From: a virus
Virus genome (UHGV): UHGV-0131811
Length of the DNA: 64,000 bases
Reading direction: 5' to 3' (one strand)
Shown here: positions 41,444 to 46,044 of the stretch, in pieces
Layout of the letters: each line of letters starts with the position of its first letter
How positions within the stretch are numbered: position 1 is the first letter of the stretch
Made by a program: the position numbers and the translations under genes
Notes under the pieces: model-generated
Databases searched by the model: none
The model's input: the letters and a program-made list of their open reading frames with translations, nothing else
What the model was told of the DNA's origin: nothing

Positions 41444-41519
41444 TGGAGAATCCGAAGGGACTCGAACCCTTATAAACCTGTTTTGCAGACAGGCACATAG
41501 CCGTTTCTGTCACGGATTC
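41444..41519 (-). tRNA. tRNA-Cys (GCA)
   Basis: Hand-folded: acceptor GAATCCG/CGGATTC, anticodon loop CTGCAAA, T-loop TTCGAGT, encoded CCA. Confidence 0.7.
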
Positions 41520-41524
41520 AAATT

Positions 41525-41616
41525 GGAGGAAGATACCAGACTTGAACTGGTACACCGATTTCTCAGCTACTGGCAGTTTAGCAAACTGCTCCCTTACCTT
41601 TTAGGGTTAATCTTCC
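41525..41616 (-). tRNA. tRNA-Ser (GCU), class II
   Basis: Acceptor GGAAGAT/ATCTTCC, anticodon loop TTGCTAA, long variable arm, T-loop TTCAAGT, CCA. Confidence 0.7.
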
Positions 41617-41618
41617 AT

Positions 41619-42416
41619 TTATTTCTGTAATGCGTTCTTCATTTCTGGTGTTGCAATAGTGTCAATTACACCAGTTTTACAAGCATCATCAAACCAGTCT
41701 GGTAAGATACCTGCTAAGAACCCATTGATATTCGTTTTAAGGTACTCTGCAATAAGAGCAGCTTCTTCTTCAATCATCTGCACAACTTCATCTGCATAAG
41801 CTGTAATTTTTGAAATACCTTCATTAATCTTACTAACAGCTTGCTCAGCTAAATCAGAAATAGTATCAAGACCTTTGTCAATAGCATCTTGTAAGTCACT
41901 TAACACACCATTAACACTATCTAGTGCACTGTTAATCGTATCAATAGTTTTTTGACCATACTCTGTAGCAACACCCATAATACCACTAAATGGTGTACAG
42001 CCAACTTGTTCACCTGCTGCACCCATAACATTAGAGTAACCTTTTGCTACCTGCATACGTGATGAAAACTCATCAATGGACTTTTGACCGTAATCTGTTA
42101 GTGTTTTGGTAGTTGATGTAGTGCTTGTCAGACTCGTGGTAAAGCTGTTAAGCAGAACTGTTGTAAGTCCAGCAGCAACAAGCTTATCCTTTACTGTAGG
42201 GTCTGATACAGAGCTAATAGAGCTTACAAGTGATGTAGAGGCAGCTACGGTTCCACCGAGAACTGCTGCACCAGTAATAAGGGGGTTAGAAAACCCTTTA
42301 CCGGTTTTTAAGAGATTGAAAATCTCCTTACCTTGTTCTGTCATCTCTTTCATTAAGCACCTTTGAAATTGGTAGTCCAGTGGGATTTGAACCCTCTTCT
42401 CATGTTTTTCAGACAC
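41619..42416 (-). CDS. Hypothetical Ser/Thr-rich protein embedded in tRNA array
   Basis: 265 aa with low-complexity S/T-rich middle and helical C-terminus; same strand as tRNAs. Confidence 0.45.
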   Translation of the reverse strand: MSEKHEKRVQIPLDYQFQRCLMKEMTEQGKEIFNLLKTGKGFSNPLITGAAVLGGTVAASTSLVSSISSVSDPTVKDKLVAAGLTTVLLNSFTTSLTSTTSTTKTLTDYGQKSIDEFSSRMQVAKGYSNVMGAAGEQVGCTPFSGIMGVATEYGQKTIDTINSALDSVNGVLSDLQDAIDKGLDTISDLAEQAVSKINEGISKITAYADEVVQMIEEEAALIAEYLKTNINGFLAGILPDWFDDACKTGVIDTIATPEMKNALQK

Positions 42417-42445
42417 GCGCTTTAACCATATAAGCTACTTGGACT
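42369..42445 (-). tRNA. tRNA, probably Phe (GAA)
   Basis: T-loop TTCAAAT; anticodon loop CTGAAAA on CGTGT/ACATG stem; acceptor register and 3' end slightly ambiguous. Confidence 0.55.
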
Positions 42446-42450
42446 ATAAA

Positions 42451-42526
42451 TTGGGGTGACCTACGGGATTTGAACCCGTATAGACCATGTTCACAGCATG
42501 GGTCATTACCATTTATGATAAGGCCA
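42451..42526 (-). tRNA. tRNA-His (GUG)
   Basis: Acceptor GTGGCCT/AGGTCAC, anticodon loop CTGTGAA, T-loop TTCAAAT, CCA. Confidence 0.65.
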
Positions 42527-42557
42527 CATTTAAGGACTCTCGTAAGAATCCTTAGAA

Positions 42558-42633
42558 GTGGCAGCGGCATAAGGATTTGAACCTTAATAGGACAGCTTCA
42601 GAGACTGCTGCATTGCCAGTTATGCTATACCGC
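42558..42633 (-). tRNA. tRNA-Gln (CUG)
   Basis: Acceptor AGCGGTA/TGCCGCT, D-arm GCAT/ATGC, anticodon loop CTCTGAA, T-loop TTCAAAT, CCA. Confidence 0.55.
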
Positions 42634-42638
42634 TAAAT

Positions 42639-42717
42639 TTGGTACTCCATATCGGATTCGAACCGATACATAACACAGATTTTAAGTCTGGCCTCTCTGC
42701 CAATTGGAGTAATGGAG
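42639..42717 (-). tRNA. tRNA with anticodon UAA (Leu-type) but class I (short variable arm) architecture
   Basis: T-arm ATCGG-TTCGAAT-CCGAT, D-loop AATTGGCAG, anticodon loop CTTAAAA, discriminator A, CCA; variable region ~7 nt. Confidence 0.5.
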
Positions 42718-42719
42718 CA

Positions 42720-42795
42720 TTGGCGGGGGATGTTGGAATTGAACCAACTTCTTCGATTTCAAAGACCGAGGTTTTAACCTTGTAAACTAATCCCC
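42720..42795 (-). tRNA. tRNA-Gln (UUG)
   Basis: T-arm GTTGG-TTCAATT-CCAAC, anticodon loop CTTTGAA; 5' end uncertain by 1 nt. Confidence 0.55.
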
Positions 42796-42804
42796 TTTAA
42801 ATCT

Positions 42805-43362
42805 TTACTTTCTCAGTGGATGAATAAAGAATGCCAACATAACTCTTTCCCTTGAGAATGCTCTTTCTTCTGGGACAACACTTTTAAGTTTCCATCCAAC
42901 ATAAATTCTCCAGTAAAACTGTTTACCGAAGACTTTAATTGATGGGATAAAAGCGAATAATCCCCAAGCATTACTGTTCCACATTAGGAGATAACCAGTC
43001 TGATTATCTTCAGGGTTAGAACTTACGTTGATATTACCTTTCCACTTAGTAACATCTCTTACATCTCTTCCTAATACATGGTAAGAGAAGTTATAAGCTT
43101 TGTTTCTCCAGAGCCATCCGACTCTTTGCATGTAGACACCTAGTTTACCAATCCATCTAATATTAGCCCATCTTTTAACGTGACCTTCATCACCATCAAT
43201 TGGGTTGTCATATGTCTCCATCCATCTGAACCCGAAAGGTAAGTGTCCTTTCTTCTCACTGTAGAATGGAACTACAAAAGGTGCTAAGATAACTGCTAAG
43301 ATTGCTGCAAATGGCTCTAACAAAGCTAAGAAAATCCATGAAGCATACTTTAAGTATCTCAT
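42805..43362 (-). CDS. Hypothetical membrane-associated protein inside tRNA array
   Basis: 185 aa; hydrophobic N-terminal ~35 aa, Trp/Arg-rich remainder. Confidence 0.45.
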   Translation of the reverse strand: MRYLKYASWIFLALLEPFAAILAVILAPFVVPFYSEKKGHLPFGFRWMETYDNPIDGDEGHVKRWANIRWIGKLGVYMQRVGWLWRNKAYNFSYHVLGRDVRDVTKWKGNINVSSNPEDNQTGYLLMWNSNAWGLFAFIPSIKVFGKQFYWRIYVGWKLKSVVPEERAFSRERVMLAFFIHPLRK

Positions 43363-43601
43363 TGTCTAATCCTCGTAAGGAGGTAAATGTTATTATTCGT
43401 TTCTAAACCTTCTGGTAAAACTGTCTCAAAAATAACACTCTTCAGATGTCTACCACCAAAACAATCACGTATAAATCTTTCTACTCTAGCGGGGTCGCAT
43501 AAGTATCCCACTTTTAAGAAAATGTGGTGTTCAACACCAATGACCCTGACAAACTCAATACTCTCACAGTTTTCATGTTCAACTACTGTTAATGTTTGCA
43601 T
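43359..43601 (-). CDS. Hypothetical protein inside tRNA array
   Basis: 80 aa; stop overlaps start of 42805..43362. Confidence 0.4.
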   Translation of the reverse strand: MQTLTVVEHENCESIEFVRVIGVEHHIFLKVGYLCDPARVERFIRDCFGGRHLKSVIFETVLPEGLETNNNIYLLTRIRQ

Positions 43602-43618
43602 AGTATCACCTTTTTATC

Positions 43619-43694
43619 TGGCGCAGGATAAGGGATTCGAACCCCTATTAACAGCTTCGTAGACTGTTGCTCTTTCCATTTGAACTAATCCTGC
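43619..43694 (-). tRNA. tRNA-Arg (ACG)
   Basis: Acceptor GCAGGAT/ATCCTGC, anticodon loop CTACGAA, T-arm AGGGG-TTCGAAT-CCCTT, CCA. Confidence 0.7.
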
Positions 43695-43699
43695 AAAAT

Positions 43700-43777
43700 T
43701 GGTGTTCCAAGACGGATTCGAACCGTCACTAATACAAGGTTTGAGCTTGCATCCTCTGCCAATTGGGATACTGGAAC
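43700..43777 (-). tRNA. tRNA with anticodon CAA (Leu-type) but class I architecture
   Basis: Acceptor GTTCCAG/TTGGAAC, D-loop AATTGGCAG, anticodon arm GCAAG-CTCAAAC-CTTGT, T-arm GACGG-TTCGAAT-CCGTC, discriminator A, CCA. Confidence 0.5.
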
Positions 43778-43778
43778 A

Positions 43779-43853
43779 TGGTACTCACTAAAGGACTTGA
43801 ACCTTTTTCTTCATCTTGTAAGGGTGATGTTTTACCATATAAACTAAGCGAGT
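43779..43853 (-). tRNA. tRNA, anticodon arm ambiguous (possibly Val UAC)
   Basis: Acceptor ACTCGCT/AGTGAGT, T-arm AAAGG-TTCAAGT-CCTTT, CCA; anticodon stem has a mismatch or enlarged loop. Confidence 0.45.
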
Positions 43854-43949
43854 ATGAAAGAGGTCTGAAGTTGTGCCGCTAACTCAACTCCGTGGTATTT
43901 GTTACGGTCTTCAGTTGACTCAAAGCGGTCTTTCACTTGACCTCTGAAT

Positions 43950-44026
43950 TGGTGCTGCTCACAGGACTCGAACCTGCATTTCCATCCTTACAAGGGATGT
44001 GTAATAGCCAATTATACGAAAGCAGC
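43950..44026 (-). tRNA. tRNA-Thr (UGU)
   Basis: Acceptor GCTGCTT/GAGCAGC, anticodon arm CATCC-CTTGTAA-GGATG, T-loop TTCGAGT, CCA. Confidence 0.7.
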
Positions 44027-44032
44027 ATTGTT

Positions 44033-44107
44033 TGGAGCATCCAGAGGGAATCGAACCCTCAACCTCAGTTTGGAAGACTGTAATTTTCCCGTTTAAACTA
44101 TGGATGC
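44033..44107 (-). tRNA. tRNA-Gly (UCC)
   Basis: Acceptor GCATCCA/TGGATGC, anticodon loop CTTCCAA, T-arm GAGGG-TTCGATT-CCCTC, CCA. Confidence 0.65.
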
Positions 44108-44113
44108 ACTAAT

Positions 44114-44189
44114 TGGTGGAGAAGCAGGGAATTGAACCCTGTACTTAAGTTTGCAAAACTTATGTTTTAACCATGTAAACTACATCCCC
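44114..44189 (-). tRNA. tRNA-Ala (UGC)
   Basis: Anticodon arm TAAGT-TTTGCAA-ACTTA, T-arm CAGGG-TTCAATT-CCCTG, CCA; acceptor has one mismatch. Confidence 0.6.
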
Positions 44190-44195
44190 AATGTT

Positions 44196-44271
44196 TGGTA
44201 CAGGTGGAGGGAATTGAACCCATCGTCTTACTGATTAAGAGTCAGCCGCATAACCATTCTGCTACACCTGC
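44196..44271 (-). tRNA. tRNA-Lys (CUU)
   Basis: Acceptor GCAGGTG/CACCTGT, anticodon loop CTCTTAA, T-loop TTCAATT, CCA. Confidence 0.6.
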
Positions 44272-44278
44272 ATTAATT

Positions 44279-44355
44279 TGGTACACCTAGAGAGATTCGA
44301 ACTCACACTGAGCAGATTCTAAGTCTGCTGCCTCTACCAGTTGGGCTATAGGTGC
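44279..44355 (-). tRNA. tRNA with anticodon UAG (Leu-type) but class I architecture
   Basis: Acceptor GCACCTA/TAGGTGT, D-arm GCCC-AACTGGTAG-AGGC, anticodon arm GCAGA-CTTAGAA-TCTGC, 5-nt variable loop, T-loop TTCGAAT, discriminator A, CCA. Confidence 0.55.
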
Positions 44356-44613
44356 ATTAAATCTTTTTAGAGAACTTCTAAGAACCTGAGCAACAAGGTT
44401 CCACAACAAGCGACTAATAACCTTAGAAGCCCTCTAAAAAGACCTAAATAGGTCTTTGCATAGTCTTGTTTAATCCGGTGACTAGAACCTTTGGAGAGCT
44501 TGATATTATCTCTTCTCCGTGACACCTACTAGGTGTTTTATCAGTGTGTACGACAATACACGAGGGATACCAAAGCAACATCCGAATGAAGCTTGGCTTT
44601 AAATCTTATTAGG

Positions 44614-44701
44614 CGGTAAGTAAAGGAGTCGAACCCTCACCGTATCTCTACAGTGGCAACTGTTTTCAAGACAGTTTGGCTACCATTAGCCGCTACCTAC
44701 C
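44614..44701 (-). tRNA. tRNA-Ser (UGA), class II
   Basis: Acceptor GGTAGGT/ACTTACC, anticodon arm ACTGT-CTTGAAA-ACAGT, long variable arm, T-loop TTCGACT; CCA not encoded. Confidence 0.65.
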
Positions 44702-44714
44702 CCTAATAAGACTT

Positions 44715-44797
44715 TGGCATGGGACGGAGGAGTTGAACCCCTTTGAAACGGTGTTGGAAGCCGTTGCTCATGCCTTAGAGTCTTAACATCGTCCCAT
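44715..44797 (-). tRNA. tRNA-like gene, atypical (83 nt); anticodon undetermined
   Basis: Acceptor ATGGGAC/GTCCCAT (8 bp possible), T-loop TTCAACT, CCA; D region about 7 nt too long and anticodon arm cannot be placed unambiguously. Confidence 0.4.
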
Positions 44798-44934
44798 ACT
44801 ATAATTCGAAGCTTACCGTATTATCTCAACACTGTAAAGCCCCTTCTCAGATTATTTACATGTTCTGGAAAACATGAGATACAGACCACCTCCCTACAGG
44901 AAGACCCGCTAAGGTCGTCTAAGTAATCTGCTAA

Positions 44935-45282
44935 CTAATATTTTGCATGTCTTACCCTATGGCAATTTGAACATAGCAAAACACATTTGTCAAGTTCATC
45001 TTTTAGTTCTTGAGAGAACTTAAGGCTTTTCCTATGACCAATGTTAAAATCTTTATCTGAAGGATTCAAATGATGGAAGTCATACACTGCTGGATGATAC
45101 TTCTTACCACAATCATGACAAACCCCACCTTTGTACTCAATAGCTAAGAGTTTAAGTGCTCTTTGTCTTTCTATGGTTTGCTCATTAACACACTTTTTAC
45201 AGTATGAATGAGTTCTCCTACCATCTTTCATGTAGAAATCATTTTCATCCTTGCTAAGTTTGCACCTAATACAAGTTTTCAT
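44935..45282 (-). CDS. HNH endonuclease inside tRNA array
   Basis: CIRCKL...CKKC and CHDCG...HHLNP...CSNCHRVRH (two zinc knuckles plus HNH core). Track N-terminal extension to 45333 overlaps the adjacent tRNA-like gene, so start trimmed to the internal Met. Confidence 0.65.
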   Translation of the reverse strand: MKTCIRCKLSKDENDFYMKDGRRTHSYCKKCVNEQTIERQRALKLLAIEYKGGVCHDCGKKYHPAVYDFHHLNPSDKDFNIGHRKSLKFSQELKDELDKCVLLCSNCHRVRHAKY

Positions 45283-45296
45283 GATTTCTCCAAAAT

Positions 45297-45378
45297 TGGT
45301 CGAGGCGGCAGGACTCGAACCCGCATACTCCACTTACTCGGTTAACGGCGGTTTAGAAGACCGCTGAGATACGCCCCG
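45297..45378 (-). tRNA. tRNA-like element with canonical acceptor/T-arm but atypical D/anticodon region
   Basis: Acceptor CGGGGCG/CGCCTCG, T-arm GCGGG-TTCGAGT-CCTGC, CCA; interior has hairpin GCGGT-CTTCTAA-ACCGC only 9 nt after the acceptor, so no standard cloverleaf; the hairpin carries the recurring GGTCTTCT spacer motif. Confidence 0.35.
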
Positions 45379-45626
45379 TAATTATCTTTAAAGACTCTCT
45401 TAGAAAGCCCTTAAAGATGCCCACCTTATTAATCATACCGTGGGCGAGTACGCCAAATTCTTTGATGAGGGATTGGAAGACCTCACTGGTGTTTAGCCTA
45501 TCAAGCTACTGCCAGAAAAACATTGTCGTTTGCATTTATTTTAAATTTGCAAAATAGACGCTACGCAACGAAAACTAAGGTTACTATAAAGTAGTCACAT
45601 CTCAATGTCAACAACTTTATTGAAAT

Positions 45627-45702
45627 TGGTACTGGTAGGTGGAATCGAACCACCGATGTTCCCTTATCAGGGGAGTGTTATAACCTTCTTAACTATACCA
45701 GC
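45627..45702 (-). tRNA. tRNA-Ile (GAU)
   Basis: Acceptor GCTGGTA/TACCAGT, anticodon loop CTGATAA, T-arm GGTGG-TTCGATT-CCACC, CCA. Confidence 0.65.
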
Positions 45703-45703
45703 T

Positions 45704-45780
45704 TGGAGGTTCAGATGGGAATCGAACCCACATTCATAGGGCTTATGAGACCCTTGCATTACCTTATCTGCGACTGAACC
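45704..45780 (-). tRNA. tRNA-Met (CAU)
   Basis: Acceptor GGTTCAG/CTGAACC, anticodon arm AGGGT-CTCATAA-GCCCT, T-loop TTCGATT, CCA. Confidence 0.65.
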
Positions 45781-45784
45781 ATAT

Positions 45785-45860
45785 TGGTAGAAGTGGAGGG
45801 ATTCGAACCCATCGCCTGTCAGATTAAAAGTCTGCCGCATCACCATTCTGCTACACTTCC
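45785..45860 (-). tRNA. tRNA-Lys (UUU)
   Basis: Acceptor GGAAGTG/CACTTCT, anticodon loop CTTTTAA, T-loop TTCGAAT, CCA. Confidence 0.65.
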
Positions 45861-46044
45861 ATTAAATTACCTTTGTAGATAAGCTACCCAGACTTGCTTA
45901 AGGTCTGTAGCGATGTGCCTTTTTGGGTTTAAATCTAGAATTTACCCATTCACCCTTTGTGGTCGCATACTCACAGGTAAGCTTAATAACTTATCTACAA
46001 AGATAATTACCAGACCGTTGTTTATCATCTTAAGTGCTACCATT

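Follow-up and report, generated by a model that had tools for sequence, protein, structure and literature searches.

Three short-armed, type I leucine tRNA genes in the tRNA array of a Felixounavirus genome

In a 64,000-nucleotide (nt) stretch of the virus genome UHGV-0131811 (hereafter the window), which is that of a Felixounavirus, we identified three tRNA-Leu genes with the anticodons UAA, CAA and UAG whose variable regions are short and unpaired. A leucine tRNA of this form is unusual for the host of the phage, but it is of a known kind, type I tRNALeu. Judged from their sequences, the three genes probably encode functional type I leucine elongator tRNAs, most likely charged by the host leucyl-tRNA synthetase (LeuRS), which would contribute to codon supply and to the translational autonomy of the phage.

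Each gene was called by ARAGORN and scored well above the gathering score of the Rfam tRNA model, which is 29 bits (Table 1). The variable regions read GUUAUGU in the UAA gene (7 nt), AUUAGU in the CAA gene (6 nt) and UCAGU in the UAG gene (5 nt), and the bracket structures place no helix in them; none of the three has the helical variable region of more than 10 nt that marks a class II tRNA. They combine the short unpaired variable loop and the Leu-type D-arm of type I tRNALeu, and the UCAGU of the UAG gene is the commonest loop type. The anticodon loops read CUUAAAA in the UAA gene, CUCAAAC in the CAA gene and CUUAGAA in the UAG gene. All three genes share A73, an encoded CCA end, a 3-bp D-stem and an 11-nt D-loop, the last being CAAUUGGCAGA in the UAA and CAA genes and CAACUGGUAGA in the UAG gene. 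The UAA gene begins with the pairs G1-U72 and C2-G71 and contains a single mismatch (C27.U43); its minimum free energy fold, computed from the single sequence, is not the cloverleaf. The UAG gene has a T-stem mismatch (U50.U64) and carries A37. A first-pass annotation of this DNA had folded the same cloverleaves by hand, with variable regions of 5–7 nt; its anticodon loops, A73 and D-loops agree with the ARAGORN calls and bracket structures, the measured variable regions bear out its lengths, and only its first gene was displaced by 1 nt. Software folding that returned other anticodons or a long arm would have overturned that annotation, and this outcome did not occur, as ARAGORN and Rfam both agree with the hand folds.

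The three genes were compared with the Escherichia coli K-12 isoacceptors leuZ (UAA), leuX (CAA) and leuW (UAG), which were segmented in the same way. Outside the variable region all six molecules have 69 positions, and the D-loop N13-A14-A15-U16-Y17-G18-G19-Y20-A20a-G21-A22 with its 3-bp D-stem keeps the same register in phage and host. U8, A14, A15, U48 (the last position of the variable region) and A73 occur in all six, so that at the level of sequence the bases of the A15-U48 Levitt pair and of U8-A14 are present in every phage gene. The anticodons are also shared, and the UAA species has G1-U72 in both. In contrast, the helical variable arms of the host tRNAs are 13–15 nt long against 5–7 nt without a helix in the phage, the host has G9 and G or A at position 13 where the phage genes have A9 and C13, U20 is found throughout the host tRNAs whereas two of the three phage genes have C20, and leuW carries G37, the m1G37 site, where the phage Leu(UAG) has A37. 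Within the anticodon loop, positions 32, 37 and 38 differ between phage and host isoacceptors. Phage–host identity over the core is only 0.43–0.64, and the phage genes are therefore not recent host copies from which the arm was deleted. When 5,426 complete E. coli genomes were searched with the 77-nt Leu(UAG) gene, no match was obtained; so short a query has low sensitivity in 28 Gb, and the search excludes near-identical host or prophage copies of this gene.

Leucine identity in E. coli depends on A73, the A15-U48 Levitt pair, G18G19, A20a and contacts linking D-loop and T-loop; leucylation does not correlate with the sequence or folding of the variable arm, and E. coli tRNALeu variants without the arm are still active (PMC9976931). 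All three phage genes have A73, G18G19 and A20a within an 11-nt D-loop, and a leucine anticodon. Because every known element for the E. coli enzyme (EcLeuRS) is kept and the arm lies outside the identity set, charging by the host LeuRS appears the most likely outcome. We infer leucylation from the conservation of this identity set in enterobacterial phages, and a role in translation as well. The engineered armless E. coli tRNALeu molecules of Larkin et al. 2002, as summarised in the same work (PMC9976931), retain A73 and the D/T-loop contacts and are reported to be EcLeuRS substrates still; the phage genes are like them in lacking the arm, but they are natural rather than laboratory constructs and their core is re-tuned (A9, C13). 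Elements of other synthetases are lacking: the 3-70 pair is U-A, U-A and A-U, with no G3:U70 (the alanine element) among them, a Ser-type arm is missing, the discriminator is A and not the G73 of Ser, and the anticodons UAA, CAA and UAG are not read by anticodon-dependent synthetases. Loss of the arm would be open to leucine alone, as LeuRS would have no need to read it. The Ser and Tyr tRNAs of the same array would have retained theirs because seryl-tRNA synthetase (SerRS) and bacterial tyrosyl-tRNA synthetase (TyrRS) require a long arm.

Codon usage is consistent with a decoding role. Over 75 open reading frames (ORFs) of the window, leucine is encoded by UUA (27.6%), CUU (25.5%), CUG (14.3%), UUG (13.9%), CUA (12.3%) and CUC (6.5%). 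In E. coli, CUG accounts for about 50% of leucine codons, UUA for about 13% and CUA for about 4%. Set against these shares, the three anticodons serve codons that the phage over-uses. The UAA and CAA species would decode UUA and UUG and the UAG species CUA and other CUN codons, which this phage of 39% GC favours far above its host, and with U34 wobble the trio could read all six leucine codons.

The short form is conserved among the Ounavirinae. FelixO1 and dozens of its relatives annotate three tRNA-Leu genes at these positions, and the FelixO1 genome paper reported Cove scores and a role in codon supply (PMC3185647). Dozens of phages carry the Leu genes with 100% identity, and the CAA gene has the same sequence in FelixO1 and in the Mooglevirus Mijalis. 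Three Leu tRNAs of 77–79 nt are also found in Mooglevirus (Mijalis) and in Kolesnikvirus (Erwinia phages Hena2 and EAP4). Hena2 and EAP4 differ from the window throughout the acceptor, anticodon and T stems, yet the changes are fully compensated and the D-arm, A73 and U48 are kept; the short form thus persists over three genera with compensated stem changes. For the three orthologues in the Mooglevirus Sf14, the leucine isotype model of tRNAscan-SE is the best (67.4, 49.1 and 60.2); that 2025 paper notes anticodon-loop differences from the host, and the word “variable” is absent from it (PMC12482277). Among 52 unique short Leu tRNAs from phages and viral contigs (among the matches listed, as for the counts in this and the next sentence), 96.9% of stem cells hold standard pairs, compared with 59.5 ± 1.1% (maximum 62.8%) in shuffles, and the 20 pairs show 89 pair types. 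All 52 have A73, and U48 and A15 occur in 51 each. From this pairing excess and the compensatory changes, the short phage Leu tRNAs are, as far as sequences can tell, selected and working cloverleaves and not pseudogenes.

Two variations within the subfamily were observed. In Hena2 and EAP4 the short Leu tRNA that reads CUN codons (c5449–5526) has the anticodon AAG in place of UAG; such an A34, unusual in bacteria, might be deaminated to inosine or might read CUU directly. In FelixO1 itself the slot of the UAG gene is occupied by another Leu(UAG) allele, also short-armed (c3773–3850; GGGAGAU..., variable loop UGUUU), and the allele of the window occurs in part of the genus only. This difference indicates a cassette-like swap of single tRNA genes within arrays that are about 95% identical.

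Similar genes are widespread in other phages. In a similarity search the UAG gene aligned without gaps to genes annotated as tRNA-Leu in unrelated phages, and a dedicated search returned 274 phage records. Their hosts include Mycobacterium (76), Streptomyces (46), Escherichia (41), Salmonella (27), Pseudomonas (13), Shigella (12) and Enterococcus (11), with Gordonia, Bacillus, Acinetobacter and Erwinia represented in addition, as well as a crAss-like phage. ARAGORN found Leu tRNAs of 74–78 nt with the same D-arm in Bixzunavirus, Streptomyces phage Elmer, Enterococcus Schiekvirus and a Vequintavirinae phage of Enterobacter, of which the Schiekvirus has one long-armed Leu besides the short-armed form. 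T5 and T4-like phages likewise encode Leu tRNAs with A73 and a Leu-type D-loop within tRNA arrays, but these are long-armed (85 nt, with a shortened but helical arm) and form a sequence cluster separate from the window genes. The T5 tRNAs, which have been studied biochemically, were considered as evidence on charging and ruled out, since the T5 Leu is long-armed.

We also scanned IMG/VR with a pattern that admits both arm lengths and ran ARAGORN on 127 loci; the counts in this paragraph are among the matches listed, and these proportions, like those from GTDB below, are samples shaped by the search patterns and not a census. A variable region of 4–6 nt was found in 58 of 136 tRNA-Leu, compared with 3 of 84 tRNA-Ser and none of 39 tRNA-Tyr. 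The three short tRNA-Ser calls were discounted as aberrant, with 8-bp acceptor stems and one of them lying inside T5 RNAX. Of 121 unique Leu tRNAs sampled from phage arrays, 52 are short-armed, and all of these have A73. In loci where a short Leu is present, 75 of 75 Ser and Tyr tRNAs are long, and the median number of tRNAs per locus is 15, against 4.5 otherwise. When only phage sequences are compared, the nearest neighbour belongs to the same arm class in 70 of 78 cases (0.51 expected), so that by sequence the phage Leu tRNAs fall into separate short and long clusters. A full-text literature search found no paper on short-armed phage tRNALeu, although absence there is not proof, and as far as that search reaches the FelixO1, Sf14 and anticodon-loop evasion studies leave the feature unmentioned. 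The wide presence of type I tRNALeu in phage arrays appears under-reported.

Cellular genomes hold the short form as well. A GTDB scan used a short-arm-only pattern built on the D-loop motif of the window itself; its counts are likewise among the matches listed. About 69 of 80 titles are Actinobacteria (Mycobacterium, Rhodococcus, Nocardia, Corynebacterium, Bifidobacterium and Streptomyces, often with two loci per genome), the other 11 belong to Cyanobacteria, Bacteroidota, Chloroflexi, Acidobacteria and Firmicutes, and no proteobacterium is among the 80. In 120 loci ARAGORN called 142 short tRNA-Leu, mainly UAA and CAA, and in 100 of these loci the short Leu is the only tRNA. The 128 unique genomic sequences have A73 and U48 without exception and A9 in 116. 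A typical one reads GCCCCCA-UA-GCCCAAUUGGCAGAGGC-A-GCGGA-CUUAAAA-UCCGC-ACAGU-GUCGG-UUCGAGU-CCGAC-UGGGGGC-A, with a core that is nearly that of the window genes. A Microcoleus contig and about ten further GTDB loci hold arrays of 17–34 tRNAs with Leu tRNAs of both arm lengths. Such arrays, which may represent prophages or mobile tRNA-array elements, could offer a path for tRNA exchange between phage and cell.

The actinobacterial type I tRNALeu (UAA and CAA) are the same in kind as the window genes, sharing a 5-nt NCAGN-type loop, A9, a C13-type D-arm (GCCCAAUUGGCAGAGGC), a 3-bp D-stem and leucine anticodons. The best core identities of the window genes are 0.76–0.82 to short Leu tRNAs and 0.61–0.76 to long ones, values inflated on the short side by a genome sample fished with the window D-loop motif and drawn from molecules too short for a firm phylogeny. 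Streptomyces coelicolor charges its type I tRNALeu(CAA) with its single LeuRS (PMC6614811), and in Mycobacterium tuberculosis only tRNALeu-2, -3 and -5 have long loops (PMC11541572). The first-pass premise that bacterial tRNA-Leu is class II consequently holds for the enterobacterial host, as leuZ, leuX and leuW illustrate, but not for bacteria generally, with many Actinobacteria and phages departing from it. The S. coelicolor system differs in other respects. There the gene is chromosomal, LeuRS relies in part on its leucine-specific domain to charge type I, A73 does not belong to the identity elements, and a 5-nt loop is reported as important (PMC6614811), whereas the CAA and UAA loops of the window are longer (6 and 7 nt), the window genes are phage-borne and far lower in GC, and enterobacterial genomes hold long-armed tRNALeu only. 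Human mitochondrial tRNALeu(UUR) is type I as well and takes its identity from A73 and A14 (PMC9976931), but it is organellar, has a dedicated LeuRS and a floppy structure, unlike the window genes.

All three Leu genes lie inside an array of 25 tRNA genes (Table 1), in a region that shares 94–98% identity with many FelixO1-like phages infecting E. coli, Salmonella and Shigella; its gene order is kept in FelixO1, Mijalis and Sf14 (PMC12482277 for Sf14). Neither ARAGORN nor Rfam detected a further tRNA with a leucine anticodon in the window, and a long-armed tRNA-Leu is absent from the 25-gene array, as the first-pass annotation had also reported. The two Ser genes and the Tyr gene of the array served as internal controls. 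Two promoter-like matches lie directly upstream of the array's first gene. Pfam searches of four ORFs in or beside the array returned only domains of unknown function (DUFs) and a weak HNH match, with no synthetase or tRNA-modifying enzyme, so none is present among them to explain a special form of charging.

Table 1. Position of the tRNA genes and associated features in the window
Feature	Position	Strand	Description
tRNA-Leu(UAA)	42640..42718	-	79 nt including CCA; ARAGORN; Rfam tRNA model 47.5 bits
tRNA-Leu(CAA)	43700..43777	-	78 nt including CCA; ARAGORN; Rfam tRNA model 44.0 bits
tRNA-Leu(UAG)	44279..44355	-	77 nt including CCA; ARAGORN; Rfam tRNA model 57.3 bits
tRNA array	41444..47018	-	25 genes for 19 amino acids (no Trp), with small ORFs between; ARAGORN, confirmed by Rfam tRNA model
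tRNA-Ser(GCU)	41524..41616	-	93 nt, helical long variable arm; internal control; ARAGORN, bracket structure
tRNA-Ser(UGA)	44612..44701	-	90 nt, helical long variable arm; internal control; ARAGORN, bracket structure
tRNA-Tyr(GUA)	46372..46459	-	88 nt, long variable arm; internal control; ARAGORN, bracket structure
Two sigma-70-like promoter matches	47045..47165	-	TTGACA-17-TAATAT; TTGACA-18-TAAAGT with TG; consensus matches only

Other elements were noted in and around the array. Directly upstream of it, a 471-aa ORF (47184–48599, minus strand) matches only DUF2828 (E 2e-30) and DUF7788 (E 2e-43) and is labelled “RNA-binding protein” in the FelixO1 RefSeq record. The direct repeat TTGCTGTAAACGGTCTTCTG... 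(20–34 nt) occurs in four copies among the tRNA genes (46116–46149, 46209–46228, 46657–46690 and 46824–46857); on the transcribed strand it presents TTTACA, 16–18 nt and an AT-rich hexamer, and one copy was called promoter-like. They may act within the array as internal promoters or as signals for processing. A tRNA-like gene at 45300–45378 (minus strand), common to FelixO1, was missed by ARAGORN and scores 31.7 bits with the Rfam tRNA model (threshold 29). Acceptor stem, Arg(UCU) anticodon arm, T-arm, A73 and CCA can all be recognised, but only 4 nt take the place of the D-arm and the variable region contains an insert of 22 nt; in Mooglevirus and Kolesnikvirus the slot is filled by a normal 77-nt tRNA-Arg(UCU). 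AGA makes up 43% of the arginine codons of the phage, which bears on whether this odd gene decodes. A further stretch at 44721–44795 (minus strand) gives a weak match to the tRNA-Sec model (16.9 bits, E 0.38) and has a 7-bp acceptor stem, a T-arm with a UUCAACU loop and an anticodon-like loop UUCCAAC, in which CCA would correspond to Trp; tRNA-Trp is otherwise absent from the array, and Erwinia relatives carry one. This stretch may be a degenerate or non-canonical tRNA. The segment at 46068–46118 (minus strand), a partial tRNA match of 22 bits over model positions 7–64 with a good T-arm, may be a tRNA remnant. In the T5 record, several “tRNA-like stable RNAs of unknown function” are annotated in the tRNA region.

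Several observations weigh against functional leucine tRNAs charged by the host enzyme. In vitro, EcLeuRS failed on a transcript of the S. coelicolor type I tRNALeu(CAA), and the authors state that it “only charges type II” (PMC6614811). The leucine-specific domain of EcLeuRS senses the loop size of the variable arm and prefers U20, with effects of about 2-fold (PMC3643597), and position 20 is C in two of the three phage genes. To these are added A37 in Leu(UAG) against G37 in the host, the mismatches C27.U43 (UAA) and U50.U64 (UAG), and the lack of any excess of promoter-like sites overall (18 against 13.8 ± 4.0 in shuffles). The EcLeuRS result also favours the view that the three molecules are not leucine acceptors in the host at all, but carry another amino acid or none and serve as decoys or competitors, with anticodon nucleases and modification enzymes as examples of targets; changes such as those at positions 32, 37 and 38 have been proposed to evade anticodon nucleases (PMC10264068). 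We consider this very unlikely. Near-invariant A73 and U48 (52 and 51 of the 52 short phage tRNAs listed) and an E. coli-type D-loop geometry held across diverged stems would not be expected of a decoy that stays uncharged, the identity sets of other synthetases are missing, and the leucine isotype model is the best in Sf14 (PMC12482277). The first-pass annotation had offered unusual Leu isoacceptors, reassigned tRNAs and decoys as options. Reassignment finds no support, with G3:U70 and a Ser-type arm missing and the anticodons read by no other synthetase, nothing requires a decoy, and it is the isoacceptor option that all the tested identity elements, the compensatory changes and the best leucine score of the Mooglevirus orthologues favour. 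Decaying pseudogenes or software artefacts would accord with the fold of the UAA gene and the one or two mismatched pairs, but have a negligible chance of being correct, given scores well above threshold from both ARAGORN and Rfam, an encoded CCA, complete identity in dozens of phages, compensatory changes across three genera and 96.9% pairing against 59.5%; the covariation data refute this reading.

The remaining alternatives accept decoding and concern the reason for the missing arm. Arm loss could be an anti-defence adaptation on top of normal decoding, by which armless Leu tRNAs would evade toxins, such as those of the MenT/AbiEii family, that select class II tRNAs by binding their long variable arm, and leucine decoding would continue once the tRNALeu of the host had been inactivated; we regard this as unlikely. 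MenT3 does require the long variable loop of tRNASer, but it discriminates against tRNALeu (PMC11541572); MenT1 targets a tRNALeu and AbiEii seems to prefer class II tRNAs, yet no toxin is known to inactivate enterobacterial tRNALeu via the arm. Evasion would suit a trio that could read all six leucine codons and so free the phage from host tRNALeu, the concentration of short Leu in large, near-complete arrays (a median of 15 against 4.5 tRNAs per locus among the matches listed), and the fact that Leu is the only class II family with an arm-tolerant synthetase and the only one found armless. However, the short form is the ordinary chromosomal tRNALeu of Actinobacteria (a lone gene in 100 of the 120 loci listed), and its existence as a cellular gene means that inheritance explains it without selection for evasion; T4-like phages and T5, moreover, retain long-armed Leu. 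For enterobacteria, evasion is currently unsupported. A related and distinctly doubtful proposal is that phages adopted an armless tRNALeu lineage invisible to arm-reading toxins or nucleases, of the MenT/AbiEii type or undescribed, with a LeuRS that does not need the arm. If this were true, leucine decoding would be kept alive during abortive infection, and enterobacterial LeuRS must charge type I tRNALeu, against the current statement. Under the preferred reading, that of functional type I leucine tRNAs charged by the host LeuRS, the genes would come from an old short-armed tRNA-Leu sequence lineage common to many phages and actinobacterial chromosomes.

Textbooks take the long variable arm to be characteristic of bacterial tRNALeu. 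The phage genes are natural armless Leu tRNAs under strong selection. They are kept in phages that depend on an enterobacterial LeuRS, an enzyme reported to charge type II only, and so raise a sharp experimental question, namely whether natural type I tRNALeu is charged by enterobacterial LeuRS. If it is, the substrate range of this enzyme would need revision, and the genes would give LeuRS-based suppressor engineering small, naturally occurring scaffolds. The contrast between Leu and Ser/Tyr within the same arrays amounts to a natural experiment confirming which synthetases require the arm. A further question is whether arm-reading toxins shape phage tRNA repertoires. The spread of the short form over phages of at least four bacterial phyla and over actinobacterial chromosomes makes the flow of tRNA genes between phage and host a tractable question.

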